From Coriobacteriales bacterium (GTDB lineage: Bacteria; Actinomycetota; Coriobacteriia; Coriobacteriales; UBA8131): a stretch of 53,067 nt of DNA. The notes under the pieces are model-generated. The model searched no databases. It was not told the origin of the DNA and saw only the letters and a list, made by a program, of their open reading frames with translations. Below are positions 1 to 17,192 of the stretch, piece after piece (within the stretch, counting starts at the first letter, position 1; every line of letters starts with the position of its first letter). The stretch is from NCBI GenBank assembly GCA_031264075.1, contig JAISEO010000088.1, forward strand, positions 1-53,067, written 5' to 3'. Position numbers and translations under genes: made by a program.

Positions 1-55
1 TTCCTCGACTGCGGGGCTTGCGCCCCTGCGCTCGGCAATGGTTCTATGAGTACGC

Positions 56-1303
56 TTATAGCGTAACAACTCTGGTGGCCAATTCATGCAGGATGTGCTC
101 GCGGAGCTTAGAGGCGACCTCTGCATACTCTGATATTTCGGAGGCAACATCTTTCATGACGGCATCAATATTTTCTACGATGCTTTCATACAAGGCGTGC
201 AGTTCATCGGCTATAACCTTGATATTTATGCCAGATTCCTCGGCAAACAGTCGGAAGTCCTCCTGGTCTATCCTGTCGATATGGCTGTGTCTGCCGATTC
301 GCATCGCCATCGAACGGAGTAGTCTTTCCCCATAAAACGTAGTGCAGACCAGGTCGTAAGCTGGAGCTACTGATATCTGTCCATTGTCATGTCTTCGCAA
401 GAGGGAGAAATTCTTGGCGTGGGCATCACAGTTGCCTATGAGGTAGTTGAACAGGGCTATTCTGAGCAGAGATCGCATGTTAGCCAACGGAGGTAACGCG
501 TTGTGTAATACTGTGGTAAAAAGTTCCGCGAGCCCCGGGCCGCCGTCGCCTTCGTATTTTGCCAGCGGGCTGATGGAGAGGGCTTGACAAAAATCCTCTT
601 GTCCCACGCGGATGATCTCGTCATTTTGCGCAACTCTATCAAAGCGCTCTATTACAAGCCCGTAGTTCTGTCCGGCTTGGATTACCCAGGTCTCAGGAAC
701 AGTCAGACCACAGCTCTTTGCCAAGCGCATCATGAAGAATTCGTTAACAAGCACTGTGTTGTCAAAAAGCGCGGACGGCTTGATGATATGTGTGGTCGGA
801 GCCAGCCCCTGGGTGGCAAACCACTCTCCACGATTGCGGTAAAGCCCGATCTTGGCCTGTGCGCCAGCCAGCGACAGTCTCCTGGCAGCCAGAAAGCGCA
901 GCCTTTCAATCGACTGTGGCCTGAGCAACGTTTCCAGTTCGCCTGATGTCACCTGCGTATATCCTGAGCCCTCCAGGACTTCGTTGATGTCCATGTTCTC
1001 GCTAACAAGTATGAGGTCGCCCACGCACTCGCCTGCCAGAGCAGCCAGTAACTTCATCACGCTGGTTGATGAGACGTGTAGTATCTCGCTGAGCTCTCGC
1101 CGTTGTTCACCTTCTGGCAACAGGCCGTCAAAGAAGGGCATCGCGATGTTTTGGGCGTAAGGTTCTTCCAGGATAGGCATGGAAACAGAGATCGGATAGC
1201 AGCCTGGCCCGCGATAGTTTCTGTCATAGGAAAAGGCAAGGCCGTTGGATGTAGTGGCAAGAACGCCTACGAGCTGTGTAGTGCGGTAAATAGACAGTTT
1301 CAT
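56..1303 (-). CDS. hipA: HipA-family Ser/Thr kinase toxin with N-terminal couple domain
   Basis: Motifs LSLAGAQAK, HIIKP, GNCDAHAKNFS and APAYD; N-terminal PISVSMP...FFDGLLPEG; start overlaps the hipB stop. Confidence 0.95.
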   Translation of the reverse strand: MKLSIYRTTQLVGVLATTSNGLAFSYDRNYRGPGCYPISVSMPILEEPYAQNIAMPFFDGLLPEGEQRRELSEILHVSSTSVMKLLAALAGECVGDLILVSENMDINEVLEGSGYTQVTSGELETLLRPQSIERLRFLAARRLSLAGAQAKIGLYRNRGEWFATQGLAPTTHIIKPSALFDNTVLVNEFFMMRLAKSCGLTVPETWVIQAGQNYGLVIERFDRVAQNDEIIRVGQEDFCQALSISPLAKYEGDGGPGLAELFTTVLHNALPPLANMRSLLRIALFNYLIGNCDAHAKNFSLLRRHDNGQISVAPAYDLVCTTFYGERLLRSMAMRIGRHSHIDRIDQEDFRLFAEESGINIKVIADELHALYESIVENIDAVMKDVASEISEYAEVASKLREHILHELATRVVTL

Positions 1304-1548
1304 CGTGCCTCCTCACTCGGTTGTTCATTGTTCTCGCACACATATACCTTCAGCCCTAACGAACTGGCTACCGCCAAGGCTTTGTCCAACTCTACTGTGG
1401 GCTTGCCGTTCTCCAGGTCTGAGAGGAACTCACGGCTAAAGGTCGAAAAAAAGTCGGCAAGCTGGCTTTGGGTCAATCCTTGCCCTTTGCGAGCAGAGCG
1501 AATGCTTGCACCAAGGTCTGCTGCGGTGTGTATTCTGGTTCCCATCAT
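1300..1548 (-). CDS. hipB: HipB-like XRE helix-turn-helix antitoxin
   Basis: 82 aa HTH (IRSARKGQGLTQSQLA...FLSDLENGK) directly upstream of and overlapping hipA. Confidence 0.9.
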   Translation of the reverse strand: MMGTRIHTAADLGASIRSARKGQGLTQSQLADFFSTFSREFLSDLENGKPTVELDKALAVASSLGLKVYVCENNEQPSEEAR

Positions 1549-1572
1549 CTCTCCGATTATTGGAAGGTGTAC

Positions 1573-1615
1573 GTACTGGCATATTTTAGCAGTGTTGCCT
1601 TAAATGCGCCAGTAC
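1573..1615 (-). promoter_or_regulatory. hipBA promoter/operator inverted repeat
   Basis: GTACTGGCATATTT (1573-1586) and AAATGCGCCAGTAC (1602-1615) are 12/14 complementary and overlap a minus-strand extended -10 TGcTAAAAT (1591-1583). Confidence 0.55.
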
Positions 1616-1798
1616 AGGCATGTACCCTCACCACGAAACTCTCAGCTTGCGAGCGCAGCGATGCTCCTTGAGGCAGCGTGGAAAAGCTGCTCCACCTTTT
1701 GCCCAGGGCAGGCCGCAAAACCAAGGCGAGGCGACACGAATCGCAGAATCGGTATCAGAGGAACCCGAGGTAGATGCCCTGTTTGTGGAGGAATACGA

Positions 1799-1828
1799 GT
1801 GTGCCAAAACCTATAGGTTTTGGCACAC
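1799..1828. repeat. Left recombination site of switch A (perfect 30-bp palindrome)
   Basis: GTGTGCCAAAACCTATAGGTTTTGGCACAC is its own reverse complement; the 20-bp core occurs four times in the window. Confidence 0.9.
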
Positions 1829-1973
1829 CGTTTTCAGGCCGTTTTTGAGTGGAAGTTGACGAGGCCGAAAATTGATGTAGATTTCTCAAAACACTCCATC
1901 TACAAGCTGTTATACTGTGAAATAGTCCTGCAGCGGACAGACAGGGGTCTTCCGTTTTTAAGGGTGATTTTAC
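1829..1973 (-). promoter_or_regulatory. Invertible promoter segment A (145 bp), pointing away from the CWB2 gene (putative OFF)
   Basis: Reverse complement of 9970-10113 with about 12 differences while the flanks are co-directional; -10-like TATAAC on the minus strand at 1914-1909. Confidence 0.85.
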
Positions 1974-2003
1974 GTGTACCAAAACCTATAGGTTTTGGGA
2001 CGC
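1974..2003. repeat. Right recombination site of switch A
   Basis: GTGTACCAAAACCTATAGGTTTTGGGACGC; same 20-bp palindromic core. Confidence 0.9.
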
Positions 2004-2047
2004 CATCTACCAGCAGTTTAAGCGCGATATTGGCAAAGGAGAGGCAC

Positions 2048-5000
2048 ATGAAAAGCAAGATAATGGGCAAGACAAGGAAGCTGCTATCCGTCCTATTGGT
2101 ATTGGCCCTTGTGGGCATGGTGCCGGCTGTTCCGGCGTTTGCCGAAGAGGGGGTTATCGCAGGCGATGAGTTCAGCTTTAATACTACAACCGGTACGCTG
2201 ACCATCACTGACGACGGTAATAATGGAGAAAACCCGTGGATAGCCGACTGGTATTCTGCATTACAAACTGCTCTTTCTGACGCAGAGCTCTCAACGTCTG
2301 ATATAACTACCGTAAATGTTGGTGCAAAGACAAGCTTTTTGCCGCCGCCTGACTACAGCTATGGGTATTTCTGGAACGGTTGGGATGGGCTTGAGGCTGT
2401 CAACGTTGATTCCGATAACGCGAACTTCTCTTCTGTAGAAGGTGTTCTTTTTGACAAGGCAAAGCAAACGCTGCTCTGCTATCCAAAGAAGCGCGAAGCA
2501 GCCGCATACAGCATCCCAGAGGGCGTCGTCGCAATGAATGCTGACGTTTTTGCAAGGTGTAACGAGCTGACGAGCATCTCTCTGCCCAGCACCCTGCTGA
2601 GGCTCTACAACGATTCCCAGTACTTACCTAGCTTTGAGCCGTTTTACAGCTGTACAAACCTTGAGACAATCTCCGTTGCGTCTGGCAACGCCGTATTCAT
2701 CGCAGAAGACGGTGTGCTGTATGACAAAGCAAAGTCCGCGCTCATTTCATTTCCGGCAAAGAACGCCCAAACATCCTATACGCTTCCTGCTACGGTCAGC
2801 ATAGTCAACCGCATAGCCTCAAAGAATCTCACTCGTGTTGTTATACCTGATGACACCGCAATGACTAGAATTCCTGGCCCTACTCTTGAATACTCCGAAC
2901 AAGATGCGAGGGCCTTCAAGTATTACGCTTCTGGGTTCACAGCAATGCCGCTGTTGGAGTCAATCACCATACCGGCTGCCATATCATCCATAGGGATCTT
3001 GGCATTTAGCAACTGTTCGAGTCTGGACGAACTGGTATTCAAAGGCGCTACGCCGCCTGCCATTTTGGGCCAGAATGAGATAGGTTCCGGTGCCGCGCTC
3101 TGGGATACATACACGAACCCCGACTACCCCGACCTTCCACTACAACCCAGTGCTTCAGGGACTCTCCGGTGCCCATTTGGTGCTATCGCTGCCTACACCC
3201 CGTTGAAGACGGACTTCAGTTTGACTCTTGGAGGTTGGAGTATCGTCGAGGAGCCAGCCACTGCCACGAAAGACATAAGCCGCTTCGTGCTTGCCGGTGT
3301 GGAAGGCACCATTAACGGCACGGACATCTCTCTGGTACTGCCCTCCGGCACCAACGTCACCAGCCTGGCACCGACCATCACCCATACCGGAGCCTCCATC
3401 AGCCTGGAGAGCGGAACAGCACAGAACTTCACAACCCCAGTGGTCTATACCGTGACTGCCGGGGACAGCTCCACCAAGATCTACACCGTCACGGTGACGG
3501 TTGCAACGATAAGCAATGTAGTGGTTACGCGTACGAGCGCGACAGAGTTTTCCGTCAGGTTCAACAGCAACCTCGCAGGCGACATTCAGATCTTCGGCTC
3601 TAACGGCGAGAGCCCCATCTATCCGATAATCAGGCGTCCTATCACTCCCGGCCAGAATACGTTCGGCCCGGGTCTTCCTGCTACAGACATCTATGGTGAC
3701 TGGGGACACCTTGGAGAGACTGCCGCAGCTGTCGAACTAACAGCCATGGTCTCTGAGATCCCTGTCTGGTCTGACACATTCGCCATCCCCGCTTGGAACG
3801 ATGGAAAGGCAAGTACCAAGGACATCACCTCCTTCAAGATAGGCACGGTCGTAGGCACGATAAGCGGCACAACCATCAGCGTCACTGTCCCCTATGCGAC
3901 AGATGTTACTTCGCTGACTCCGGCCATCACCCACAGCGGAGTTTCCATCACTCCCACAGGCTCACAGAACTTCACACGTCCCATCACCTACACGGTGAAA
4001 GCAGAAGACGGAACCACGAAGGCCTACACCGTGACGGTATCGAAAGAACCTCCCCCAGTAGACACAGAATGGCCCCGCCTCGACGGCAACAAGGGAGAGA
4101 AGGGAGGCCGCTACGACACCATGCAGGCCATTGTGAGCACAGGCTGGAAGGATGAAGGCTCTCCCTACGTCATAGTGGCAAGCGGCATGAACTTTCCTGA
4201 CGCCCTCGCAGCCTCAAGCCTTGCTGGCATCTACGGAGCACCGGTCGTACTCACCGAGAGCTCAACACTCACCTCTCAGGCAGAACAGACCATAAAGGAC
4301 CTCGGTGCGACGAAGGCTCTTGTCATAGGTGGAGAAGCCGCAGTCTCCAAAGAGATACTCGCGGCACTGGAAGACATCGTAGGCCCAGGGAACGTAAGCC
4401 GAATCTCAGGAGGTACCCGTATAAGCACAGCCCTCGACATCTATGAGAAGGGAAGGACACCTGACGCTAACCAAGCCTCCTGGGGAGACATCGCCATCAT
4501 AGCCAACGGCTTCAGCTTTGCAGATGCCCTCTCCGTCTCTCCCTTTGCCAACGTCACTCGCTCCCCCATATTCCTCTCTACTCCAGAAAGCATGTCGGGA
4601 AGCGGCCTTGACGAGGCAACACTTGCTGCCATCAACACCGGAGGCTTCAAGAGGATAATCATCACCGGAGGCACCGCTGCCGTACCAGGCATCGTAGAGG
4701 ATCAACTCGCCTCATCAGGAGCTACAGTAGAACGCTGGTCAGGAGCCAACCGCTATGAGACGAGCGCAGCGATTGTAGAGAATTCACTTGAGAACTCAGG
4801 AGGTGCGCTCTCTCTCAATAACATAGTCTGTGCCACCGGCTTCAACTACCCCGATGCCCTCGCAGGAGGAGCCTTCGCAGGTCACATAGGCACCGTGCTC
4901 CTGCTCGTACACGCAGAAGCAGAGGGTGGACGTACGGGACTGAGTATTATCGAGGCGCATAAGGACGAGATAGGGAAGGGCTATATCTTAGGTGGCAGTG

Positions 5001-5050
5001 CCGCTGTGCCAGATGAGCTACTGACACTCTTGCAGGGTGGAGCGAGGTAG
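2048..5050 (+). CDS. CWB2 surface protein A: signal peptide, BspA-type LRR region, two Ig-like (DUF5018-like) repeats, three C-terminal CWB2 repeats
   Basis: RBS AAAGGAGAGG before ATG 2048; signal peptide ending PAFA; YSIPEGV..LTSISLPSTL LRR_5-like repeats; repeated KDIxxF...APTITHTG...TYTVTAxD; CWB2 motifs NFPDALAAS, FADAL, NYPDALAG, GANRYETS. Confidence 0.9.
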   Translation: MKSKIMGKTRKLLSVLLVLALVGMVPAVPAFAEEGVIAGDEFSFNTTTGTLTITDDGNNGENPWIADWYSALQTALSDAELSTSDITTVNVGAKTSFLPPPDYSYGYFWNGWDGLEAVNVDSDNANFSSVEGVLFDKAKQTLLCYPKKREAAAYSIPEGVVAMNADVFARCNELTSISLPSTLLRLYNDSQYLPSFEPFYSCTNLETISVASGNAVFIAEDGVLYDKAKSALISFPAKNAQTSYTLPATVSIVNRIASKNLTRVVIPDDTAMTRIPGPTLEYSEQDARAFKYYASGFTAMPLLESITIPAAISSIGILAFSNCSSLDELVFKGATPPAILGQNEIGSGAALWDTYTNPDYPDLPLQPSASGTLRCPFGAIAAYTPLKTDFSLTLGGWSIVEEPATATKDISRFVLAGVEGTINGTDISLVLPSGTNVTSLAPTITHTGASISLESGTAQNFTTPVVYTVTAGDSSTKIYTVTVTVATISNVVVTRTSATEFSVRFNSNLAGDIQIFGSNGESPIYPIIRRPITPGQNTFGPGLPATDIYGDWGHLGETAAAVELTAMVSEIPVWSDTFAIPAWNDGKASTKDITSFKIGTVVGTISGTTISVTVPYATDVTSLTPAITHSGVSITPTGSQNFTRPITYTVKAEDGTTKAYTVTVSKEPPPVDTEWPRLDGNKGEKGGRYDTMQAIVSTGWKDEGSPYVIVASGMNFPDALAASSLAGIYGAPVVLTESSTLTSQAEQTIKDLGATKALVIGGEAAVSKEILAALEDIVGPGNVSRISGGTRISTALDIYEKGRTPDANQASWGDIAIIANGFSFADALSVSPFANVTRSPIFLSTPESMSGSGLDEATLAAINTGGFKRIIITGGTAAVPGIVEDQLASSGATVERWSGANRYETSAAIVENSLENSGGALSLNNIVCATGFNYPDALAGGAFAGHIGTVLLLVHAEAEGGRTGLSIIEAHKDEIGKGYILGGSAAVPDELLTLLQGGAR

Positions 5051-5070
5051 GGGGCGATGGCAATCGCCCC
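5051..5070 (+). terminator. GC-rich hairpin right after the stop codon (no U-tract)
   Basis: GGGGCGAT-ggca-ATCGCCCC. Confidence 0.4.
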
Positions 5071-5102
5071 GGACAGCGAAGGAGACAGTACAAGTGTCCC
5101 AA

Positions 5103-5198
5103 TGGATTGCCGCGTCGCTTCGCTCCTCGCAATGACAAAGAGGAGAGATAGTCTCTTTTTGTCATTGCGAGGAGCGCGTAGCGCGACGCGGCAATCCA
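5103..5198. repeat. REP-like ~96-bp palindromic element (two inverted units)
   Basis: TGGATTGCCGCGTCGC..GCTCCTCGCAATGACAAA ... TTTGTCATTGCGAGGAGC..GCGACGCGGCAATCCA. Confidence 0.8.
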
Positions 5199-5309
5199 CA
5201 ACAGCAGAGAGGGAGGACAAGAACCAAAGGGCAAGAGGATACGTAAGGCAAGACAGGCAAGAAAGCTAAACAGAGACAAGCACATCGAGTCACGAAAGAG
5301 TAAGGAAAG

Positions 5310-7361
5310 GTGATAGGTATGACAAGAGTTTCAAGTAGGGCACTCCGGATGTTTTGCGCTTTGGCATTGGCCTTAGGTATAGCCGTGCCCTCGACGGTGG
5401 CATTTGCCTCCCCGGAACAGGAAGCGGAAGCAGTGGTGACAGCTGTGCAGGATGGTTCTGTAGGGATAACCTCTACAACAGGCACTGCGACAGCGGGCGC
5501 AGGCTCGTCAGTAGGCTTTGGGCAGAGTGTGGCATCCACCAGTGGGCAGGTAGGACCAGCTGCCACAGACGCATCCAGCACAGAAGGGGACGTTGTGCCT
5601 TTGGCCGGGGTCTCCGACTGGCAGTCAACGGCAGCTACCCAAACACTGGATGTTGCCTTTGACGCGGAACACTACCCAGGAGCTGTCTACAGCATCAAGG
5701 GTATAGAGTATACCGACGGTGTCATGACAATCAACTATGCGTTCTCCTCCGAAGGTGCCACCGAACATCCGAATGTGGCGATGTGGGATAGTATATTCCT
5801 AGAGAGCAACGATAATGTCAACTATGGCTACGGCCTTAACACCTATTATTTCATATGGAGCTATAACTCGAGTATCTATGGCCATTTTGGTGGAAGCTCC
5901 AGTTTTGAGGGTAGTATTGAGCTAAATGCTGCCCAAGTCGTTTCTCCTTCTGGCCTGTCCGGGGAGCTTGCAGCCTATCTCAGTGGTAGAGCAAGCGATT
6001 TAAGCAAGTGGACAGCCGAAGATGTCGCAGGGCTATTATCTTGGCGTTTCGCAGAGTATGCCAAGTTTGCGTTCCTTGACGTTCAGCGCACAGGCGCAGA
6101 CCGGGTGGCTGTCAGGGTACTCAGTAATCGGGACATTGTTGCTGAAGAGGGTGTTGAGTGGTCGGGTGCTTCTATGGAACTGTGTCTGAACAATGAACTC
6201 TTTGACTTCAATAACATCAGCTTGACAGCCGGCCCCCACAACGTCTTCGTGCTCAAGGCCTCAGAAGATACGCTAAGCGAATATAAACCGTCGGTGGATT
6301 ATGACTACGTCTTTGTCGGTATCATGCCGCTTCCCGGTACCTCTATACCCGTCCCCCCCTGGACAACCCCCACAGAAGAGCCCTGGCAACGCCTCGACGG
6401 CAACAAGGGAGACAGCGGCACCCGCTATGACACCATGCAGTCGATAGTAGAGACAGGCTGGGGAGCAGACGGCTCGGACTATGTCGTCGTGGCCTCGGGA
6501 GAAAACTTCCCTGACGCCCTTGCCGCCTCAAGCCTCGCCGGCATCTACGGGGCTCCCGTGGTGCTCACGACCAAGGGTACGCTCACTACCCAGGCAGAAG
6601 ACACCATAAAGGCACTCGGGGCCACCAAGGCCTATGTCATAGGCGGTACAGAAGCGGTTGCTTTGGAAGTAGAGCAGAGCCTCTCTGGCATAGAAGGCAT
6701 GGAGGAAGTCAAGCGTATCGAGGGCATAGACCGCTTCGCCACAGCACTCGACATCTACCGAGAAGGCAAGGAGACCGACTCCTGGGGCACCACTGCCATC
6801 ATAGCCAACGGCTTCAACTTCGCAGACGCGCTCTCCATCTCACCCTTTGCCAATGTGACAGGCTCCCCCATATTCCTCGCAAGCCTTGAGAAAGGTCTGG
6901 ACGCAGACACCCTCAAGGCCATCAATGAGGGCGGCTTCAAGAGGATAGTCATCACAGGAGGCGACAAGGCCGTCTCTCCTGCAGTGGAAGACCAGCTTGC
7001 CGAGTCAGGGGCCACGGTCCTGCGCGTCTTTGGCGAGAACCGCTACGAGACCAGTGCGGCGATAATCGAGTTCTCACAGGACAACTCGGCCTTAAGGCTT
7101 GACCGGATAATCTGTGCCACGGGCGCGAACTTCCCCGACGCACTTGCAGGAGGCGCCTTCGCAGGTCACATCGGTTCTGCGCTCCTCCTCGTGCACAGCA
7201 CGGCAGAGGGAGGACAGGCAGGGCTCGAGAGCATCATCAAGGCACACCCCGACGAGATAGGACTCGGCTACGTGCTCGGTGGCGCTGCCGCAGTGCCAGA
7301 AGAGCTCCGCCAGATTCTTGAGGCGGGCTCCAGGATCCCCGCCCCCACGGGCAGGGGTTAA
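5310..7361 (+). CDS. CWB2 surface protein B: signal peptide, S/T/A-rich linker, unknown passenger domain, three CWB2 repeats
   Basis: Signal peptide ending VAFA; C-terminal ~320 aa homologous to those of genes 2048 and 10188; alternative start ATG 5319. Confidence 0.9.
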   Translation: MIGMTRVSSRALRMFCALALALGIAVPSTVAFASPEQEAEAVVTAVQDGSVGITSTTGTATAGAGSSVGFGQSVASTSGQVGPAATDASSTEGDVVPLAGVSDWQSTAATQTLDVAFDAEHYPGAVYSIKGIEYTDGVMTINYAFSSEGATEHPNVAMWDSIFLESNDNVNYGYGLNTYYFIWSYNSSIYGHFGGSSSFEGSIELNAAQVVSPSGLSGELAAYLSGRASDLSKWTAEDVAGLLSWRFAEYAKFAFLDVQRTGADRVAVRVLSNRDIVAEEGVEWSGASMELCLNNELFDFNNISLTAGPHNVFVLKASEDTLSEYKPSVDYDYVFVGIMPLPGTSIPVPPWTTPTEEPWQRLDGNKGDSGTRYDTMQSIVETGWGADGSDYVVVASGENFPDALAASSLAGIYGAPVVLTTKGTLTTQAEDTIKALGATKAYVIGGTEAVALEVEQSLSGIEGMEEVKRIEGIDRFATALDIYREGKETDSWGTTAIIANGFNFADALSISPFANVTGSPIFLASLEKGLDADTLKAINEGGFKRIVITGGDKAVSPAVEDQLAESGATVLRVFGENRYETSAAIIEFSQDNSALRLDRIICATGANFPDALAGGAFAGHIGSALLLVHSTAEGGQAGLESIIKAHPDEIGLGYVLGGAAAVPEELRQILEAGSRIPAPTGRG

Positions 7362-7383
7362 GAGAAAGGCAGGCCAGACCCAA

Positions 7384-7416
7384 GGCAGCAGGGCGCGCGC
7401 GACGCGTCCTGCTGCC
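7384..7416. terminator. Hairpin between convergent genes
   Basis: GGCAGCAGGGCGCG...CGCGTCCTGCTGCC. Confidence 0.55.
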
Positions 7417-7523
7417 GGTAAGTAACGTAAGTCGCTTCCTCTATAGCCCTAAGAACTAGTGTGGGGTGGTTGTATGTATGAGGCTACCTGCTCGGTGATG
7501 AGGTGGCTCTGCCGACGGTTTCG

Positions 7524-7709
7524 TCACCTTATCGACATCGACTCCCATTCGGCACCGGTTATGCGCCGCCCTATCCTCTTTTCGATGGCAGGGACGTATT
7601 TGAGTCCTGTCAGGCTCTTCATCTCGTCAGACTTGAGTGGTCGCAGTCCGTAGTCCCCCGTACGGATAATATACTCCTCGGCCTTCTCTATCACCTCACT
7701 CTGCCTCAT
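7524..7709 (-). CDS. Small hypothetical protein (61 aa) overlapping the GNAT gene end
   Basis: Start overlaps the GNAT 3' end and is preceded by GAAAGG; no recognisable family. Confidence 0.5.
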   Translation of the reverse strand: MRQSEVIEKAEEYIIRTGDYGLRPLKSDEMKSLTGLKYVPAIEKRIGRRITGAEWESMSIR

Positions 7710-8112
7710 CGTTCAGATACCTTTCTATCAATGCCCTGCTGGCCTCGGTGTCAAAGTGCAGTCGTCTCCCAGGCAGAGGTTTTGCCCCATACTTCTCAAT
7801 GTAATACTCGTAGAGGAGCGTCTTGGGCTCCAAGACCACAAAGCCCTCGAAACCTTGGTCAAAGGAGTCCCGCGCCACATACGCCAACAGTTTGCCTGCG
7901 ACTTCGGTACCCCGGTACTCGGACTTGACCTCAATCAGATGAAGAAAGTCAAGCAGGCTACTCGGGATCCTCTCAAACTCAATCAGTCCGGCAATCTGGC
8001 CATCCTCGACACGTGCAACCGTCTGTGTCTGGTCGTTGGAGCGAGCCGTCCAGTCGAACTCAAAACCGACTGTACCCCGCAGTGTGGATATGTCCTCAAT
8101 CATTTTGAACAT
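7696..8112 (-). CDS. GNAT-family N-acetyltransferase, probably leaderless
   Basis: Motif A EVKSEYRGTEVAGKLL and motif B LYEYYIEKYG; extended -10 TGcTAGAAT ends 6 nt before the ATG. Confidence 0.75.
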   Translation of the reverse strand: MFKMIEDISTLRGTVGFEFDWTARSNDQTQTVARVEDGQIAGLIEFERIPSSLLDFLHLIEVKSEYRGTEVAGKLLAYVARDSFDQGFEGFVVLEPKTLLYEYYIEKYGAKPLPGRRLHFDTEASRALIERYLNDEAE

Positions 8113-8251
8113 GCTGGTATTCTAGCACAGGACAGAGGCCATGGCCCGTCCCGTCATGGATGCGTCAACACCGTATCCTTTGATACCACGATATTTCATC
8201 TGATAACGTTATGGTTAAACTAAGGACCGCCGAAGAAAAAACCAAAAGTTT

Positions 8252-9301
8252 CTAGCCTGCAATATACCTCGCGTCGTGTGTTGCGCCATCTTGTTGAATA
8301 TAGCCAGCATCTACCAAACGTTTGAGCCTCCGCTGTATCGTACGGCGTGACACATCCCTGAAAATGCCCTCGGCCTCGGATATGGAGATGGAGCCGAATT
8401 GCCGGACATAGCTCAAAATGTCAAGTTCTTCACGAGAGACCCTCTGGTCAATCGAGGCAGTGCGCACCGCACTCGCAAGCAGGGAAACCTCTGCGGCGAG
8501 GACATTTGCCGACACAAGGAACCCATCAGCAAAGTAGTCTATCCAAGGATCAAGGTTGGCTTCCCGCGCGGTCTCATAGTTATTGCCCTGTACGGTGTGC
8601 AGTGCCTCGTAGTAGGCCTTCTTATCCATGGCGTAATAGGAGTCAAGGACGAGAGCATTGCGAAAATCATAGCTGCGTAGACTGAGATACAGCATCGTGA
8701 GCGCCCGGGTAGTCCTCCCATTCCCATCAGCAAAGGGATGTATGGAGACAAACTGGACATGAAAAATGGCTGCTGCGATGACGGGGTGAATCTCGTAGGA
8801 ACTAGTGTTCAGCCAAGCTAAGAGCTCCTCGACTTCCCCTTCGACATCCTCGGTGTCTGCCGCATCATAGACTGTACGCCCATCCTGGTCCTCAATGTAG
8901 ACGGGGTTCTTGCGCCAGTGGCCAGTTCTGCTCTCATCCAGGAGTCCTGCAGTCATGATACGGTGGACTGTCAAGATGTCTTCGGCGGTCATTCTCTCCA
9001 TGGATGTTGCACGCTTCTCTATATGATCTATAGCTTTTTTGTAGTTGCGCACTTCGATCTCGGCGTACCTATGACGGGTGAGTGAGGGCTTCTCGGAGAG
9101 GGCCAACTCGACTTGCTTCCTGTTGAGTGGGTTGCCTTCGATAGACGTGGAGCTATGCGTCGCCTCAACAGTGGCTCTGTAGCGCATCTCAACCTCCCGC
9201 TCCGGCAAGATGTAGCTCAGACTGATTGCAGAGCGCACGCTTTCTATCTGCGCTATGATATTGAGCAGGTCATTTGAAATATGGTAATTCGGTCTGTACA
9301 T
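8252..9301 (-). CDS. Fic-family protein with C-terminal winged HTH
   Basis: Canonical HPFADGNGRTTR; inhibitory-helix motif STSIEGN; C-terminal SRRTIQRRLKRLVDAGYI. Confidence 0.92.
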   Translation of the reverse strand: MYRPNYHISNDLLNIIAQIESVRSAISLSYILPEREVEMRYRATVEATHSSTSIEGNPLNRKQVELALSEKPSLTRHRYAEIEVRNYKKAIDHIEKRATSMERMTAEDILTVHRIMTAGLLDESRTGHWRKNPVYIEDQDGRTVYDAADTEDVEGEVEELLAWLNTSSYEIHPVIAAAIFHVQFVSIHPFADGNGRTTRALTMLYLSLRSYDFRNALVLDSYYAMDKKAYYEALHTVQGNNYETAREANLDPWIDYFADGFLVSANVLAAEVSLLASAVRTASIDQRVSREELDILSYVRQFGSISISEAEGIFRDVSRRTIQRRLKRLVDAGYIQQDGATHDARYIAG

Positions 9302-9329
9302 GCTCCCATTATATCAGACGGCCAATCGC

Positions 9330-9361
9330 TTTGCGCCACATTTGCGCCACTCTTTGCGCCA
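9330..9361. promoter_or_regulatory. Three direct repeats TTTGCGCCA(C) in the Fic promoter
   Basis: Copies at 9330, 9341 and 9353; minus-strand TATAAT at 9313-9308 lies 6 nt before the ATG. Confidence 0.6.
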
Positions 9362-9428
9362 GCTCGTGAAACTACACGATAAGAGCACTGCTTAAACCAT
9401 CAGAAATGATGATTGACTCCGCTTTGCT

Positions 9429-9605
9429 TCAGTCACCTGCTGGCGGACTGTTGAGCGAAAGTAACTCAGAGGCAGCATAGCGCGTACGCTCCATAAGCGC
9501 GTCAAGCGAGCCGGATTCAAGCACAAGACCGGGAATCTCGTCACTGGTAGCAATCCATACAGCGGCTTCTTCATCCCAGAAAAAACTTACTTGATATTCA
9601 CTCAT
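9429..9605 (-). CDS. DUF1902-like (HicB-fold) small protein, 58 aa, absent from the ORF track
   Basis: Hand translation MSEYQVSFFWDEEAAVWIATSDEIPGLVLESGSLDALMERTRYAASELLSLNSPPAGD; upstream extended -10 TGgTACAAT. Confidence 0.75.
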   Translation of the reverse strand: MSEYQVSFFWDEEAAVWIATSDEIPGLVLESGSLDALMERTRYAASELLSLNSPPAGD

Positions 9606-9939
9606 TTCGCATCTCTCGATTCTCGACTGATTCTCTTAATTGTACCATGTTGACCTTAAAGCCTACGGCGATAATCGCTCACACTGTTAAGGATTTTAAT
9701 TGCGCCGTCTTTGTTGTTCGCCATATCTATATCCCGTTCATCTACTCACTAGATTCCACTTTGTCTGGCATGATTTTGCGATATCTCTACATACACGTAC
9801 GTTGTTACTTAAAGCGATGGTACCACAGCCACCTTACCGGTTTTCAAACAGACGCAAAACAAGTACCCAAAGGGGAGATACTGCGAGTCCTGACTTGCAG
9901 AGAACCCGAGGTAGATGCCCTGTTTGCGGGAGAATACGA

Positions 9940-9969
9940 GTGTGCCAAAACCTATAGGTTTTGGCACAC
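9940..9969. repeat. Left recombination site of switch B (perfect 30-bp palindrome)
   Basis: Identical to 1799-1828. Confidence 0.9.
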
Positions 9970-10113
9970 GTAAAATCACCCTTGAAAACGGAAGACCCCT
10001 GTCTGTCCGTTGCAGGACTATTTCACAGTATAACAGCTTGTAGATGGATTGTTTTGAGAAATTTCCACAATTTTTGGCCTCATCAACTCCCGCTCAAAAA
10101 CAGCCTAAAAACG
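9970..10113 (+). promoter_or_regulatory. Invertible promoter segment B (144 bp), pointing toward the CWB2 gene (putative ON)
   Basis: Inverted paralogue of 1829-1973; TATAAC at 10029-10034 on the plus strand; no canonical -35 at 17-bp spacing. Confidence 0.85.
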
Positions 10114-10143
10114 GTGTGCCAAAACCTATAGGTTTTGGGACGC
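10114..10143. repeat. Right recombination site of switch B
   Basis: GTGTGCCAAAACCTATAGGTTTTGGGACGC. Confidence 0.9.
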
Positions 10144-10187
10144 CATCTACCAGCAGTTTAAGCGCGATATTGGCAAAGGAGAGGTAT

Positions 10188-12512
10188 ATGAAAAGCAAGA
10201 TAATGGGCAAGACAAGGAAACTGCTATCTGTTCTACTGACACTGGCACTCATAGGCTTGGTGCCGGTTGCCCCGGCGTTTGCCGGGGAAGAGACAGATGT
10301 GCAAGAGCAGGCTGGGACGGTCGTTCCTTCTGAGGCTCTCATCGTGCCCACTGTCGAGTTCGGCGAGATAGAGCGTACGCACCCTGCATCGTTTCGCGCT
10401 CAGGTCACGATACGCTTTGCGCAGCCACAACCCGATTTCCGGCAAAAGAACCCTCAGATTGCCTATGAGGTCACGGAGTCAGGAGGGGGAGGTGCCGTCC
10501 TGGCAACAGGTACTGGCACGGATTTCAGTTGGAATGGAGAGCAGTACATCGAGTACTCTGTGTACTTCAGCGGAAATTTGTCCTCAACTGATTACAGCGC
10601 CAGAACCCTGTCCGTGACGCTCACCGCAGACGGCATCCAGACCACAGTTGTCGCGGCCACGTTGCCTGCCTGGCCGTCTGCGCCTGAGGGTACCTTCAGC
10701 GGCCCGGGCCTCTGGGGTATCGGTTCAGGCGGTGCTTGGGGAAAGACCTACGTCGCTTTCAATCAGAGAGGCGGCACGCTGAGCGGTGTGTCCCAGGTGC
10801 GCTTTGTGCTGGCGGGCTATCCCGCGACAATAGGGGACTACAGCACGAATTATGAAGGCTTTAAGGGCAACACGAACTATCTCTATGCTGTTCTCTCCGA
10901 GGACAACGGCTGGGACACGACCGCCATCCCGCTCAGCTGCACACAGGTGGGCACAACGGTGACCATGACCGTCGATCTCACTGCCCTGCCTGACTCGATC
11001 ACGCTTACTTCCAATACCATACTGTATCTGGAGTATTTCTACATCCCTCGTTGGCAGGGCGAGATTACGGCCAGTGTGTATTTTGACCAGACCTTGGCGG
11101 CAAGCAAGAAGCTCCAGGGTGGTCTTCCGGAGATAAGGTATCCCCGTACCGGCGATGCCACCTATGTCAAGGGCAGCGGAGTGGATCTTGTCGCGGACAT
11201 CCATGCGGCAACGCAGGCAGATTCCTATGACGATTACGGTGTCCTTCTGGGTGTGCCCGAGGTCATGGATAACTTCCTCTATACCTATATCGGAGAGTTT
11301 ACAGAAGGCGCCGTACGTGAGGAGGGCAACGGCTTCTGGCGCATCGATGCCAATGCGGCCCGAGGTGCGATACAACGCACTGCTTCAAACACTGTCGTGA
11401 CCGTCACTTCGGGTTTCCTGGATAGCCTGGTGCCGGGAAGCTATGTGCTTCGTGTGCATTATCAGGATGCAGCGACGGGCTTTTACGACATAGCGCTCAC
11501 CATAAAAGCCCCGACAGACACCTCCTGGCCCCGCCTCGACGGCAACAAGGGAGACAGCGGCACCCGCTTCGACACCATGCAGGCGATAGTCGAGACAGGC
11601 TGGAAGGACACCGGCTCCGACTACGTTGTGGTGGCCTACGGCCATGACTTCCCCGATGCATTAGCCGCCTCAAGCCTAGCAGGCATCTACGATGCCCCGG
11701 TGGTGCTCACCGACAAAGACAGGCTAACCGACCAGGCACGTGCCACCATAACAGGTCTTAACGCGAAGAAGGCCTATATCATAGGAGGAGATGCCGTGGT
11801 GTCTGAGGAAGTGGAAGGCTCCCTTGCCGAACTCCTCGGAGGAACAGCTAACGTAGAACGTATAGCAGGAGAAAACCGCTTCGCTACAGCACTCGACATC
11901 TATCGAGAGGGAAGCGAGAGCACAGGAGGCTGGGGAGACACCGCCATCATAGCCAACGGCTTCAACTTCGCAGACGCCCTCTCTGTCTCTCCCTATGCCA
12001 ACGTCATGCACTACCCCATCTTCCTCTCTACCCCCGATACCAGACCGGAAAGTGGTCTTGACGCAGACACGATAGCTGCTATCAATTCAGGAGGCTTCAA
12101 GAAGGTAATCATCACCGGAGGCACGGCTGCCGTACCGGGCATTGTTGAAGAACAGCTCATATCCTCAGGACTAACCATAGAACGCTGGATGGGTGATAAC
12201 CGCTATGAGACAAGTGTGGACATCATAGAGAAGTCACTGCAATTCTCTGGAGGTGCACTTACCCTTAACAACATCATCTGTGCCACGGGCTTTAACTACC
12301 CTGATGCTCTGGCAGGCGGGGCCTTTGCCGGACACATCGGGAGTGTGCTTCTTCTCATAGATGATGGCAGTGTGCGTGAGGGAGGCTACGCGGGACTGGA
12401 GCGTATCATCAGACCTCATGCCTCAGAGATAGGACAAGGGTATGTGCTTGGGGGTGAGGGGGCGCTGCCAAAAGAGCTACTGGACCTCCTTCAGTCGGGC
12501 TCCAAGAGTTAA
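10188..12512 (+). CDS. CWB2 surface protein C: signal peptide, unknown beta-rich passenger, three CWB2 repeats
   Basis: Same 5' UTR/RBS and MKSKIMGKTRKLLSVLL signal peptide as gene 2048; CWB2 motifs DFPDALAAS, FADAL, NYPDALAG. Confidence 0.9.
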   Translation: MKSKIMGKTRKLLSVLLTLALIGLVPVAPAFAGEETDVQEQAGTVVPSEALIVPTVEFGEIERTHPASFRAQVTIRFAQPQPDFRQKNPQIAYEVTESGGGGAVLATGTGTDFSWNGEQYIEYSVYFSGNLSSTDYSARTLSVTLTADGIQTTVVAATLPAWPSAPEGTFSGPGLWGIGSGGAWGKTYVAFNQRGGTLSGVSQVRFVLAGYPATIGDYSTNYEGFKGNTNYLYAVLSEDNGWDTTAIPLSCTQVGTTVTMTVDLTALPDSITLTSNTILYLEYFYIPRWQGEITASVYFDQTLAASKKLQGGLPEIRYPRTGDATYVKGSGVDLVADIHAATQADSYDDYGVLLGVPEVMDNFLYTYIGEFTEGAVREEGNGFWRIDANAARGAIQRTASNTVVTVTSGFLDSLVPGSYVLRVHYQDAATGFYDIALTIKAPTDTSWPRLDGNKGDSGTRFDTMQAIVETGWKDTGSDYVVVAYGHDFPDALAASSLAGIYDAPVVLTDKDRLTDQARATITGLNAKKAYIIGGDAVVSEEVEGSLAELLGGTANVERIAGENRFATALDIYREGSESTGGWGDTAIIANGFNFADALSVSPYANVMHYPIFLSTPDTRPESGLDADTIAAINSGGFKKVIITGGTAAVPGIVEEQLISSGLTIERWMGDNRYETSVDIIEKSLQFSGGALTLNNIICATGFNYPDALAGGAFAGHIGSVLLLIDDGSVREGGYAGLERIIRPHASEIGQGYVLGGEGALPKELLDLLQSGSKS

Positions 12513-12546
12513 AGGCGAGAAAGAAAACACAAAAAGCTACTACAGA

Positions 12547-12584
12547 CCGAAGGGGGGCAGAACCCGTGTTCTGCCCCCCTTCGG
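12547..12584. terminator. Perfect 17-bp stem-loop downstream of CWB2 gene C
   Basis: CCGAAGGGGGGCAGAAC-ccgt-GTTCTGCCCCCCTTCGG. Confidence 0.65.
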
Positions 12585-12661
12585 CCGCCCGGCCAAGGGC
12601 ATAGAGCAGCAGGATTCATAAGCACTCGACCATCATCCACGGTCTCCCTCCCTATAATTTG

Positions 12662-12706
12662 AGAAAAGAAAGCTCCCGATCCGTAGGGGTCGAGGGTTTT
12701 CTTTCT
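12662..12706. terminator. Terminator-like hairpin upstream of the recombinase
   Basis: AGAAAAGAAAGCTCCCGATCC-gta-GGGGTCGAGGGTTTTCTTTCT, with T-rich tails on both strands. Confidence 0.5.
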
Positions 12707-12761
12707 GTGGGGCCTCAAAACCATGGCATTTCGCCGGAATCGCCCCTGGGTAAGGGGGTGA

Positions 12762-13421
<660 letters not shown>

Positions 13422-13619
13422 AGAGCTCGTACATCCGGGCTCCCCAAACCAACGCCCCCCGTCGCACGAGCAGGGGGCGTTGTAATGCCGGGCGCGCGTC
13501 GCTCCTACGGGGAGCTGCTCTGATGAACGGCAGCGTTAGCCATGTGCAGGACTGTCGTGCAGTGATTGAGCTGCAATAAGCAGCATCTCAGAGTGCAAAC
13601 AAATCTCAACCTGAAAGGG

Positions 13620-14288
13620 CTATTGGTTTTCTTCGGTATCCATGCCCAGTATGCAGGAACTATACAAGAACTCCTTGAGTCCAGTGGGGTTTCCCGTTTC
13701 GTAGTAATCGCTCAGCAGGGTGTTGAAGTCAAGCAGTACCCGGTCGGATACCAGCAGGATTCCTGCTCCGGACTCTATGAGAATCTTGTTTGCGGCCAAC
13801 AGGGCTGTACGTTTATTGCCGTCCCAGAAAAGCTGCGTTCGCGTTATCCAGGCAAAGAGGTTGAGGGAAGTCTCTGTGCTTGAGAGCGGGGTTGCCAGGA
13901 GTTCGGAAAGTTCGCGTTCAACCGTTGTGGCAACAGGAACGGGGGGCACGTAAGCAACGACGCTGATTCCAATCGTTCCGTCTCTGAGGTTTCCCCAGGC
14001 AAGCGCCTCGCGATAGGCCACACGTTCCTGCAGTTTGCAGAGATACTCAAGAGTCAATTGGCCGTCAAGATGCGCGAGCAGGTAGTTCCACGCATCGCGC
14101 AGGTTGAGTATCGCCTGGATATCGTCAAGCTCCACACCGGCAACATTGACGCCGTCAACAATAGTCTGTGTCTGAGGAAAGGTGACATTGCGGTTTTCCA
14201 TGCGCATACCACTGTAGATGCTCTCGACTCCCCGCTTCCTGGCAAGGAATACATTCTCTTCTCTGCTGAGGTAGTATCTGTCTTGCAT
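13620..14288 (-). CDS. Fic/Doc-family protein with degenerate motif
   Basis: QLFWDGNKRTA replaces HPFxxGNGR; RBS GAGGAG. Confidence 0.85.
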   Translation of the reverse strand: MQDRYYLSREENVFLARKRGVESIYSGMRMENRNVTFPQTQTIVDGVNVAGVELDDIQAILNLRDAWNYLLAHLDGQLTLEYLCKLQERVAYREALAWGNLRDGTIGISVVAYVPPVPVATTVERELSELLATPLSSTETSLNLFAWITRTQLFWDGNKRTALLAANKILIESGAGILLVSDRVLLDFNTLLSDYYETGNPTGLKEFLYSSCILGMDTEENQ

Positions 14289-14499
14289 GAACTGCTCCTC
14301 TCAAGAGATAGTATAGCACTTGCTCAGAGCCACCATCGAGCCAGCTGTTCACTCGACTTACTTTGCCCCGAACAGAAACCTCTGGGAAGAATTGGCCTGC
14401 GCCGCAAGGCAGTAAGGGAGAGCCTTGAAGCTGCGTGCAGGAACGTAGTGAGCCAGACGGTGTATAATCTTTCTGCGACACATACAAAGGAGGTGCGCC

Positions 14500-14841
14500 G
14501 TGTGCGACGACAGACAGCTAAGTGAAATCATGACTTGCGTTACCAAATATTCTGAACAGGAGTTTGGAGACAACCTGAAAGATGTGGTTCTTTTCGGGTC
14601 GTATGCGCGTGGCGACTTTAACGACGAGTCTGATGTTGACATAATGATTCTCGTCGATAGGAGTCAGATGGAACTCAAAAGTCTACAGTCAGCGTTTTCC
14701 AGCCTGAGCACCGATATCGATCTTGCCTATGACGTTGTCTCTTCACTGCATCTTCAGGATTATCGCCTGTTTCAAGACTGGAAGGAAGCGTTGCCGTTTT
14801 ATCGCGAGGTTGTATGTGACGGAGTGAGCGCCTATGTCTGA
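14500..14841 (+). CDS. Minimal nucleotidyltransferase (MNT)
   Basis: LFGSYARGDFNDESDVD (GS-x10-DxD); RBS AAGGAGG; upstream TATAAT. Confidence 0.9.
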   Translation: MCDDRQLSEIMTCVTKYSEQEFGDNLKDVVLFGSYARGDFNDESDVDIMILVDRSQMELKSLQSAFSSLSTDIDLAYDVVSSLHLQDYRLFQDWKEALPFYREVVCDGVSAYV

Positions 14842-15308: not shown

Positions 15309-17192
15309 CTACCGAGCGCTACCCGTGTCAAAGGCCAGCAGCTTTTGATAGTAGGCGTTGCTCTGTGCCAACTCTCCCGGGGAGCCGCTGAGACAGAGGC
15401 TGCCGTCTTCGATGAAGATGACCCGGTCCATCAGGGAGACCCCTTGCAGGTGATGCGTAATCATGATGAGGGTCTTGTCTCGCAAGGTCTTGAACAGGGT
15501 GTCGAGCAAAAGCTGCTCGGACACCGGGTCCAGGCCCACGCCTGGCTCGTCGAGGATGACGAGGGGCACGTCGCTGAGCAGCACCCGGGCCAGCGCGATG
15601 CGATGCTGTTCACCACCTGAGAACCTGAGGCCCGCCTCATCCACGAGCGTGTCGAGCCCCGAGGGCAGACGCCTGCCAAGCTCGCCGAGGCCGACGCTTT
15701 CGAGAACCTCCCACAGCTCCTCGTCGGATGCTCGCTGGTTTCCTATGCGGAGGTTTTCGGCGAGCGTCGCGTTGAAGAGATAGGACTGCTGCTGGACCAC
15801 GCCCACATACTCGGTGATCCTGTCTCCCAGTGCGCAGGTGGCAACGCCGCCCAGTTCTACGGAACCCCTGGTGGGGACGAGGTCGCCGCGAATGAGGGCG
15901 GCAAGCGTGCTTTTACCCGCGCCGCTGCGACCGAGTATCGCGAGCTTCTCGCCCGGCGCGAGGGTGAGGTCAATGTCGTGCAGCACGGAGCGAGACGCGG
16001 CGGAGTACCGATAGGCGAGCCCCTTAATAGCAAGCGTGAGCGGAGCCCGTGGCGTTGCGGAAATATGCTCTGCGGCGTCTTGCCGCGGGGTGTCATCGGG
16101 GGCGCTTAGAGGCCTCTCCTCGGAAGGGTTCTCTGAGACAGCCCGCGCCCGCTCCCCCGTATCGGCAGCTGTTTCATCCTCGTGTGGCAGTCTGCCCAGG
16201 CGGTCTGCGGAATCGCGGTAGGAGTTCATCTCGACGGCGGCCTTGGGGAGGGGGGCAAACACCTCGATGAGCGGAAAGAATCCCAGCACAAAGGCCGCAA
16301 TCCAGTCAGCCGCTCCGCCGTAGGATCCGCCAAACTGGAATGCGGCCCACGCGAGAAGCGCCACCACCACGAGCGCGTACAGGACCTGGAGCAGAAGGTC
16401 TCGGTTGCGGGACGCGCGATGGAGCTTTGCCTCAACACCGCGCAGGGCCTCCTCCGAGGCACGGTAGGTCTGTGTGTACTCGTCGCTGCGGCCTGAGATT
16501 ATCCAATCGGAAACGCCGAGGACATTATCGGTGAGCTGCTCGTACAGCTGGTTTTTCATGGTCTTGCGGCGTGCCTCGCAGGCCCCCTGTCTGAGCGCCG
16601 ACACCAAGGGCACCAGCAGCACGATAACGCTCAGCATGAGCAGCATGGCCAGCGCAAACCAGAGCGAGAAGAAGCCCAGGCACACAACTATAAGTACGGT
16701 AAGCACCCAGGCTCTGATGAGGGGAAAGATGCTGCGCAGGTAGAGGTTCTGGATGTGCCCGATGTCCTCTGCAAGCAGGCCCAGAATATCGCCGGTTCTG
16801 AAGCGCTGCTTAAAGAAGATAGCGTCCCTCTCAAGCGCGTTATAGAGCTTGAGACGCAGGCTTGAAGTCATGCGGAGGATCCAGTTATGGCTCACCAGGC
16901 GTTCTGCGTACTGCAGGATGGGTTTGCCTACGCCAAAGATCCTGACCAGGGCCACCGGCACGAAGATGGCAACGATGTTGCCCGGCGCCTCGGCGGCCCG
17001 GCTGATGAGGTAGCCCGAGCTGAACATGAGCGCACTGGCAAACACGTAGGTCGCAACACCGAGAAGGAGGGCGAGGATGAGTGCGCCGCGATACTGCTTG
17101 AAGAAGGGCCGTATCCAGCGGTCGCCTCGTCTACCCGCTCTTGAGCCTGCCTTTGCGCGTGGACTTTTGTCGTGGGCCGAAGGAGCGCTCAT
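15309..17192 (-). CDS. cydC: Thiol-reductant ABC exporter CydC
   Basis: TM domain with YAERLVSH, Walker A GRSGAGKS, FSGGE signature; last gene of the cyd operon. Confidence 0.93.
   Translation of the reverse strand: MSAPSAHDKSPRAKAGSRAGRRGDRWIRPFFKQYRGALILALLLGVATYVFASALMFSSGYLISRAAEAPGNIVAIFVPVALVRIFGVGKPILQYAERLVSHNWILRMTSSLRLKLYNALERDAIFFKQRFRTGDILGLLAEDIGHIQNLYLRSIFPLIRAWVLTVLIVVCLGFFSLWFALAMLLMLSVIVLLVPLVSALRQGACEARRKTMKNQLYEQLTDNVLGVSDWIISGRSDEYTQTYRASEEALRGVEAKLHRASRNRDLLLQVLYALVVVALLAWAAFQFGGSYGGAADWIAAFVLGFFPLIEVFAPLPKAAVEMNSYRDSADRLGRLPHEDETAADTGERARAVSENPSEERPLSAPDDTPRQDAAEHISATPRAPLTLAIKGLAYRYSAASRSVLHDIDLTLAPGEKLAILGRSGAGKSTLAALIRGDLVPTRGSVELGGVATCALGDRITEYVGVVQQQSYLFNATLAENLRIGNQRASDEELWEVLESVGLGELGRRLPSGLDTLVDEAGLRFSGGEQHRIALARVLLSDVPLVILDEPGVGLDPVSEQLLLDTLFKTLRDKTLIMITHHLQGVSLMDRVIFIEDGSLCLSGSPGELAQSNAYYQKLLAFDTGSAR

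Follow-up and report, generated by a model that had tools for sequence, protein, structure and literature searches.

We find that the genome of a Coriobacteriales bacterium from termite gut carries what is, judged by its sequence, a genuine multi-copy inversion-switch system. Its short DNA segments, each set between two palindromic sites, probably serve as invertible promoter cassettes that a serine recombinase would flip at many loci, making surface proteins phase variable. The stretch analyzed here (the window) comprises positions 1 to 53,067 of contig JAISEO010000088.1, which we call C1, in assembly GCA_031264075.1 (genome G000), a 2.18-Mb metagenome-assembled genome (MAG) in 105 contigs that is 90% complete. 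Two switches, C1-A and C1-C (A and C for short), lie in the window in front of two genes for surface proteins with CWB2 domains. An earlier note on this DNA had described them as a twin pair, but the genome has at least 10 such loci. Cassette anatomy, opposite orientations among paralogues, conservation of the sites, linkage of recombinases to sites and the match to the promoter consensus are all directly observed.

Cassettes A and C have co-directional flanks and an inverted inner segment. Their left flanks are direct repeats (1761-1828 versus 9902-9969, 96% identity), as are their right flanks (1974-2144 versus 10114-10284, 89% identity). The DNA inside matches as the reverse complement only, with 1868-2001 pairing with 9942-10075 (134 nt, 93%) and a second inverted repeat linking 1801-1874 to 10068-10141 (74 nt, 91%). 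Each cassette copy (1804-1998 for A and 9945-10138 for C) consists of a palindrome, an inner segment of ~155 bp and a second palindrome. All four bounding sites are the same 20-bp perfect palindrome, CCAAAACCTATAGGTTTTGG, which reaches 30 bp at the left site of both switches (Table 1). Because the sequence next to the left site in A is found next to the right site in C, and vice versa, the exchange point lies inside the palindromes. These direct and inverted repeats bear out the paralogous blocks with a flipped inner segment that the earlier note had described, and the TATAAC box that it took for a -10 lies where it was placed, on the plus strand at C (10030-10035) and on the minus strand in A. 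When A is aligned with the reverse complement of C, 13 of 196 columns differ, 10 in the half without the -10 box and 3 in the half holding it; the uneven spread reported earlier thus stands, with its counts of about 12 and about 2 adjusted.

A genome search for further site pairs, as the earlier note had suggested, returned 17 occurrences of the 20-mer at ≤1 mismatch (16 exact, one with a single mismatch), against none for a control in which the 20-mer was read backwards. This repetition is beyond chance. Loci were defined by BLAST of cassette parts, which gave at least 10 (family 1). Seven are complete switches (C1-A, C1-C, C9, C51, C54, C70 and C105), each with identical 20-bp sites ~155 bp apart; C67 and C94 are cut by contig ends, and C71 is truncated. 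Relative to the fixed gene side, three of the seven (C1-A, C9 and C51) are oriented as A and four (C1-C, C54, C70 and C105) as C, as are the partial loci C67 and C71; that is, the segment is found in both orientations against fixed flanks among paralogous loci. The inner segments are 73 to 92% identical among themselves and 16 of the 17 sites are identical over 20 bp, which indicates that the sites are held constant while their cargo drifts. Furthermore, the nearest relatives are in opposite states (C1-A and C1-C, 92% identical; C9 and C105, 79% identical). Given opposite states within the closest pairs, flips have occurred repeatedly.

Two further observations concern this family. The inner segment of C51 is 100% identical to that of A in the promoter half and 81% identical in the other half, which suggests gene conversion between cassettes. 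Contig C31 of the same genome has a hybrid site, TCAAAAGGTG|TAGGTTTTGA, at 16258-16277, 33 nt from the contig end; it may represent a fourth site class whose partner was left unassembled.

We propose that each cassette would work as follows. A conserved left flank of ~45 bp is followed by the 20-bp palindrome, the ~155-bp invertible segment and a second, identical site; beyond it come a fixed 5' untranslated region (UTR) with a ribosome-binding site and the signal-peptide start of a secreted, mostly CWB2, protein. A recombinase of the Sin/Bin3/resolvase-invertase superfamily would bind each palindrome as a dimer, cut at the central dinucleotide and flip the segment. Within the segment, a predicted extended -10 promoter, TGTTATACT, precedes a putative leader hairpin. 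With the promoter toward the gene, as at gene A, transcription would proceed into it; with the segment flipped, as at gene C, the promoter would fire away. The cell-surface protein repertoire would thereby undergo combinatorial ON/OFF phase variation. The acting enzyme, the activity of the promoter and flipping in living populations are what we infer here. Table 1 lists the features of the window.

Table 1. Features of the two switches, the genes that they front and the candidate recombinase, in window coordinates.
Feature	Position	Strand	Basis
Left flank of switch A (GAACCCGAGGTAGATGCC...), conserved at all family-1 loci	1761..1803	+	repeat comparison
Left recombination site of switch A, 20-bp perfect palindrome (30-bp at 1799-1828)	1804..1823	.	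palindrome search
Invertible segment of switch A ('A state'), predicted promoter toward gene A	1824..1978	+	repeats and alignment
Predicted extended -10 element TGTTATACT, invariant in 7/7 copies; predicted transcription start ~1923	1908..1916	+	
Conserved hairpin in the predicted 5' leader, one compensatory change among copies	1932..1956	+	
Right recombination site of switch A	1979..1998	.	
Fixed 5' UTR of gene A with ribosome-binding site (AAGGAGAGG)	1999..2047	+	
Gene A: 1000-aa secreted protein with DUF5018 and BspA-type leucine-rich repeat (LRR) domains and 3 C-terminal CWB2 repeats	2048..5050	+	
Gene B: 683-aa CWB2 protein, no switch of its own	5310..7361	+	
Left flank of switch C, conserved	9902..9944	+	
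Left recombination site of switch C (30-bp palindrome at 9940-9969)	9945..9964	.	
Invertible segment of switch C, flipped relative to A ('C state'), predicted promoter away from gene C	9965..10118	-	
TGTTATACT element at switch C	10026..10034	-	
Right recombination site of switch C	10119..10138	.	
Fixed 5' UTR of gene C with ribosome-binding site	10139..10187	+	
Gene C: 774-aa secreted protein with 3 C-terminal CWB2 repeats	10188..12512	+	
Small serine recombinase, 205 aa, candidate invertase for CCAAAACCTATAGGTTTTGG sites	12804..13421	+	

The direction of the promoter decides which switch is ON. TGTTATACT closes the most conserved block of the segment and is the same in all seven copies, with the conservation lying upstream of this element. 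TGTTATACT consists of the same bases as the TATAAC box read on the opposite strand; it faces gene A and faces away from gene C. Upstream of the 35 tRNA genes, the pattern TGnTAnnnT occurs in sense at 21 of 35 and in antisense at 6 (shuffle mean, 2.7), and TATAAC occurs at 3 in sense and 5 in antisense. In front of co-directional genes, TATACT ranks with the hexamers of strongest sense bias (27 sense versus 9 antisense), and TATAAC gives 8 versus 12. The extended -10 is thus apparently the dominant promoter type of this organism, with a consensus that TGTTATACT matches. The paralogous switches on contig C91 carry TGgTATGAT and TGcTATGAT close to one site, and a generic promoter scan gave a single hit, at 1856-1883 (+), in the same direction as TGTTATACT and none in the opposite one. 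Because TGTTATACT fits the genome's extended -10 consensus and faces gene A, we read A as ON and C as OFF and, given that the element is a switch, consider this polarity likely. The assignment in the earlier note (A OFF and C ON) is probably reversed, since TATAAC is without sense bias and TGTTATACT matches the native promoter type.

A conserved hairpin follows the -10 in all seven copies, with leader energies of -18.5 to -25.4 kcal/mol. One compensatory change is seen in it, and its G-U pairs fit only the strand read in the TGTTATACT direction; we take the hairpin as a predicted 5' leader structure. An Rfam scan of window 1-14500 returned no family at E ≤ 0.1. Three smaller sequence features accompany the cassettes. 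Each cassette has three copies of CATCTAC(C) or its complement, at 1770-1777 in the left flank, 1895-1901 in the promoter spacer and 2008-2015 in the right flank of A, with equivalents at C. The predicted transcript reads G(C/G)CAUCUACC past the site in either orientation of the segment, a motif missing from the right flanks of C9 and C105. Half-site-like TTTTGG/TTTTGAG repeats stand at one end of the segment.

The candidate enzyme is encoded in the window itself. Its product matches PF00239 (E = 1.7e-25), and its closest solved structures are Bin3/Sin (1.4e-27), followed by gamma-delta resolvase (2e-20), Tn3 resolvase and then Gin. The alignment spans residues 3-190 with Bin3 and 1-190 with gamma-delta resolvase, running through the C-terminal helix-turn-helix, and R8, S10, D67, R68 and R71 are invariant in five of five homologues. 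The protein thus has the catalytic domain, active-site residues, C-terminal helix-turn-helix and length (~180 to 210 aa) of a small serine recombinase. It is one of four PF00239 matches genome-wide. Two paralogues, both on contig C91, adjoin mini-switches of their own (C91:14121-14278 and C91:44449-44616; L100 and L101). In one of these switches, 118 nt separate the arms and the sites are ATCAAAAGGT-AA/TT-ACCTTTTGAT; the other has CTCAAAAGGTGTACTTTTTGAG sites with a GT/AC center and 112 nt between the arms, and its recombinase paralogue carries a TAA stop. The C91 sites have a CAAAA..TTTTG architecture in common. The central dinucleotide is the expected crossover position of serine recombinases, and site-pair asymmetry in four related switches (the two on C91 and those of genomes G003 and G007, described below) includes this dinucleotide and is confined to it in three of the four. 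From linkage and sequence, it is most likely that the window recombinase acts on the CCAAAACCTATAGGTTTTGG palindromes. Note that the second C91 switch also adjoins genes for a zinc-ribbon protein and a Flg_new/NPCBM surface protein.

Several points weigh against a flipping promoter system of this kind. The proposed promoter has a weak -35 region (AAAACA), and the hairpin with its U-run lies 15 to 40 nt past the -10, where an efficient terminator would be hard to reconcile with the direction that we favor. The window recombinase adjoins no site and lies ~290 bp downstream of gene C. In the domain test of downstream genes, the C54 product, a 750-aa protein with the shared signal-peptide start, had no CWB2 domain, and the C70 switch fronts a mere 45-aa remnant open reading frame followed by a ComEA-like gene. 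The main site has AT as its central dinucleotide; as this is self-complementary, the main sites carry no polarity, and deletion would be chemically as possible as inversion. None of 29 sampled Coriobacteriia loci with recombinase homologues (50 to 58% identity) had the site or an inverted repeat of ≥14 nt within 1.5 kb. The search for sequence runs listed three, all from one termite-gut study and none of them RNA; one contains the window (0.90 of sampled words), and the population check rests on the assembled contigs (Logan) of that run. Both switches are left unspanned by these contigs, with gaps in the records from 1820 to 2050 and from 9961 to 10241. At a single joint, one contig at depth 10.4 passes from 9940 to 10115 and skips 174 nt; a paralogous locus, a deletion product or an effect of alignment could each account for it, and we base no conclusion on it. 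Paralogous copies explain the additional depth and the variants at 1960 and 1967.

The polarity in the earlier note, with TATAAC on the other strand as the promoter, C ON and A OFF, is in our judgment unlikely. The main argument for it is the U-run of the leader hairpin: read in the TATAAC direction, no U-run stands before the gene, and in the opposite direction this hairpin and the site hairpin, each with its U-run, could serve as OFF-state terminators. In addition, TATAAC agrees with TATAAT at five of six positions, and its transcript would start near GUAGAUGG, which can pair with CCAUCUAC in the right flank of five loci, or in the left flank when read leftward. However, TATAAC is without the final T that nearly all apparent tRNA promoters have (TA[TCG]A[AC]T, 23 sense versus 3 antisense of 35), its counts at tRNA genes and genome-wide give no sense bias, and it has neither a -35 box nor a TG extension on its 5' side, where the upstream half is less conserved. 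The right flanks of C9 and C105 are also without CATCTACC, the conserved hairpin has G-U pairs that suit the other strand alone, and TATAAC polarity would put most loci ON simultaneously. Control as in Clostridioides difficile cwpV, where a terminator forms in one orientation and the promoter lies outside the segment, fits the evidence far less well still, and we regard it as very improbable. Here, transcription from outside would meet a leader in which segment orientation decides whether a terminator forms. A palindrome followed by a T-run at one segment end (for example, CGTTTTTTGG in C9, C51 and C54) would stop incoming transcripts in the A state only, and the known cwpV-regulated gene is likewise a CWB2 gene. 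Yet no conserved promoter lies 5' of the left flank, the upstream sequences at 10 loci are unrelated (the left-side neighbors are hipA, Fic, Mfd, ABC-2, MNT, MNT-HepT and Asp23 genes), a predicted consensus-type promoter is present within the segment in every copy, and a simple terminator scan found none at either window locus.

It is also conceivable that the inversions are fossils, with palindromes that are regulator operators or relics of a spent mobile cassette and orientations fixed by rare past events, but this is the least probable reading of all. Contigs of one run make no population-level heterogeneity visible, cassettes of the sister species sit at different genomic places, which implies a history of movement or loss, C71 is truncated, and C70 fronts a remnant. 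Against this, the sites have stayed identical (16 of 17 over 20 bp) despite the divergence that they enclose, the closest cassette pairs are in opposite states, the recombinase is intact with all catalytic residues present, and each paralogous recombinase is paired with its own site type, with asymmetry at the crossover dinucleotide. Contigs also break at or within ≤342 nt of the switch in 4 of the 10 family-1 loci, and contig ends overlap by ~127 nt at the G007 switch; both are expected of mixed orientation, although repeats would do likewise. We retain promoter inversion by a serine recombinase, in the polarity with A ON, as the preferred and probable interpretation. The claim of the earlier note that inversion switches with the build of promoter invertons, seen in both orientations, precede CWB2 surface genes is supported.

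Among 34 family genomes, cassette matches were found in three, G000 included. Genome G003, a sister species in the same genus, has at least three switches at genomic positions other than those in G000; at its locus L013, a recombinase of 81.5% identity stands directly before a variant switch with AC/GT site centers. In G007, from another genus, one switch with GT/AC centers is split across two overlapping contig ends. Metagenome contigs fetched through the site sequence alone also revealed homologues of the enzyme: L078 has a recombinase homologue (59.6%), then a switch, then a gene for an SLH protein, and L042 has a homologue of 51.6% identity beside the site. A scan of genome contigs for the site gave 8 stretches, of which only L001 (the G003 species) belongs to the same family. 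A metagenome scan with an 18-mer gave 55 stretches; 0 of the 55 contain a G000-type inner segment, and many are probably chance matches or other site families. Five complete genomes yielded only single weak matches to the site pattern. Recombinase homologues at E ≤ 1e-30 are found in 160 of 401 Coriobacteriia genomes, including 134 of 144 in one genus.

The site class also occurs in front of other genes. On four Clostridia-type contigs (Hungatella, Clostridiaceae and two from metagenomes), pairs of the CCAAAACCTATAGGTTTTGG palindrome 125 to 153 bp apart surround a sigma-70-like promoter (L003:4495-4652, L008:4984-5130, L075:1418-1590 and L090:114-260). A TnpB-like gene of 437 to 446 aa lies directly downstream, with PF07282 in all four; the L090 and L003 products share 61% identity. 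In L090 the segment is directed toward the gene, and in L003, L008 and L075 it is directed away, which points to phase-variable TnpB-like genes. Further switches adjoin a VWA/tip-pilin-like gene (L004:2153-2297), the SLH-domain protein gene (L078:2225-2370) and a phosphoenolpyruvate mutase/cytidylyltransferase gene (L083:10936-11119). As far as the sequences indicate, the site class is generally linked to surface structures.

Genes A and C encode three CWB2 (PF04122) repeats each (E = 8e-44 and 8e-46), in agreement with the identification made earlier, and three tandem CWB2 repeats together with a signal peptide are present in the products of genes A, B and C and of the C105 gene. The whole genome has 85 CWB2 domain matches in roughly 30 genes, so only a subset of CWB2 genes would be under switch control. 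Around the window switches lie a HipA-family kinase gene (56-1303, -) and two Fic-domain genes (8252-9301, -, and 13620-14288, -). Both hipA and the first Fic gene run divergently from the switches, so that a promoter in the flipped state would face them. Beside the switches of C70 and C71 lie MNT or MNT-HepT modules. Just 3' of gene A, window 5101-5196 forms a long hairpin of two inverted 37-nt units, to which units on 8 contigs of the genome are related. All three termite-gut runs contain these units in huge numbers and with variable flanks (depth ~4000 in X1), even the runs without this organism; the hairpin is a widespread palindromic repeat element.

In its logic the system is closest to Mpi of Bacteroides, and its gene class recalls C. 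difficile cwpV. Mpi of Bacteroides fragilis was reportedly described by Coyne et al. in 2003 as a 'master' serine invertase with invertible promoter regions. The likeness lies in one trans-acting small serine recombinase, proposed here to serve many scattered short promoter segments before surface-structure genes. Orthology to Mpi was rejected (NF009949 scores 29.4 bits against a cut-off of 272). The present system belongs to a different phylum, its cargo is cell-wall-anchored proteins whereas that of Mpi is capsule loci, its sites are perfect palindromes with a self-complementary center and not ordinary inverted repeats, and three paralogue/site pairs coexist in this one genome.

The cwpV analogy drawn in the earlier note holds in part. 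RecV, a tyrosine recombinase of C. difficile, serves several switches, including that of cwpV, and the likeness extends to an inversion switch before a CWB2 gene and one recombinase for several switches. The gene class stands; the tyrosine recombinase probably does not. In the genome, three PF00589 matches were found (C28, C20 and C30) and none on any site-bearing contig, an absence that at 90% completeness is not proof, and a cwpV/RecV-type invertase was rejected on these grounds. Unlike in cwpV, the predicted promoter here lies within the segment and the likely enzyme is a small serine recombinase.

With Hin, Gin, Cin and Pin, the candidate shares a C-terminal helix-turn-helix and near-palindromic, dimer-binding sites rich in AAAACC/GGTTTT half-sites, as in hix and gix; polarity set by the central dinucleotide is seen here in the paralogous switches, and promoter inversion as output is shared with Hin. 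These enzymes were rejected as the closest relatives, because the Gin matches (3uj3 at 2.9e-13 and 4m6f at 2e-12) are weaker than the Bin3/Sin match. The segments here are 112 to 155 bp, whereas those of Hin and Gin are ~1 to 4 kb, and four bases separate the AAACC and GGTTT blocks where there are two in hix and gix; the main site here is also fully symmetric. No Fis or enhancer partner is evident at the ~155-bp segment, at which no search aimed at either was made. The Sin/Bin3 (Tn552) group (PDB 2r0q, 5c31 and others) has the closest solved sequences, with the same catalytic residues and domain order. Sin resolves directly repeated res sites with an accessory site II and HU/IHF (PMC3798978, which also treats the mechanism of Hin). 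By comparison with Sin, single-palindrome pairs here flank short segments that are found in both orientations.

Large surveys report invertons in Actinobacteria/Actinobacteriota (PMC11602134, PMC11892184). Our literature search found nothing on invertible promoters in Coriobacteriia, on this site or on CWB2 genes with a serine invertase, although survey supplements could list Coriobacteriia switches. A search combining invertons, serine recombinases and Actinobacteria found hsdS invertons only, one for TnpB linked to invertible promoters found nothing, and for Coriobacteriia no characterized phase-variation mechanism was found.

A broader idea is worth stating tentatively, as we think it more doubtful than not. 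The switches might belong to a cross-phylum class of 110- to 190-bp invertons served by Sin/Bin3-like invertases, in which paralogues would be orthogonal enzyme/site pairs, the main site would be free of polarity, the OFF-state promoter would drive divergent neighbors and TnpB-like genes would be controlled in Clostridia. Full palindromy of the main site, AT center included, and its 17 occurrences could allow the enzyme to act between loci, by exchange, deletion or inversion of DNA. If so, inter-locus recombination would reshuffle promoters and chromosome segments besides toggling single genes, and the OFF-state promoter would drive its divergent neighbor, which is hipA or Fic for the window switches and MNT for C70.

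With a fully symmetric crossover site, a mechanistic question arises, namely how inversion is chosen over deletion. The module is compact (an enzyme of 205 aa and a site of 20 bp), has natural paralogues whose sites differ, and is a possible source of orthogonal inversion tools. Copies in Firmicutes before SLH, pilin-like and TnpB-like genes offer a handle for finding more switches. If active, the system would give Coriobacteriia, which are gut Actinomycetota, programmed combinatorial surface variation. Part of a CWB2 repertoire of ~30 genes would then be governed by inversion, with a bearing on phage evasion and on attachment to host or particles in the termite gut.

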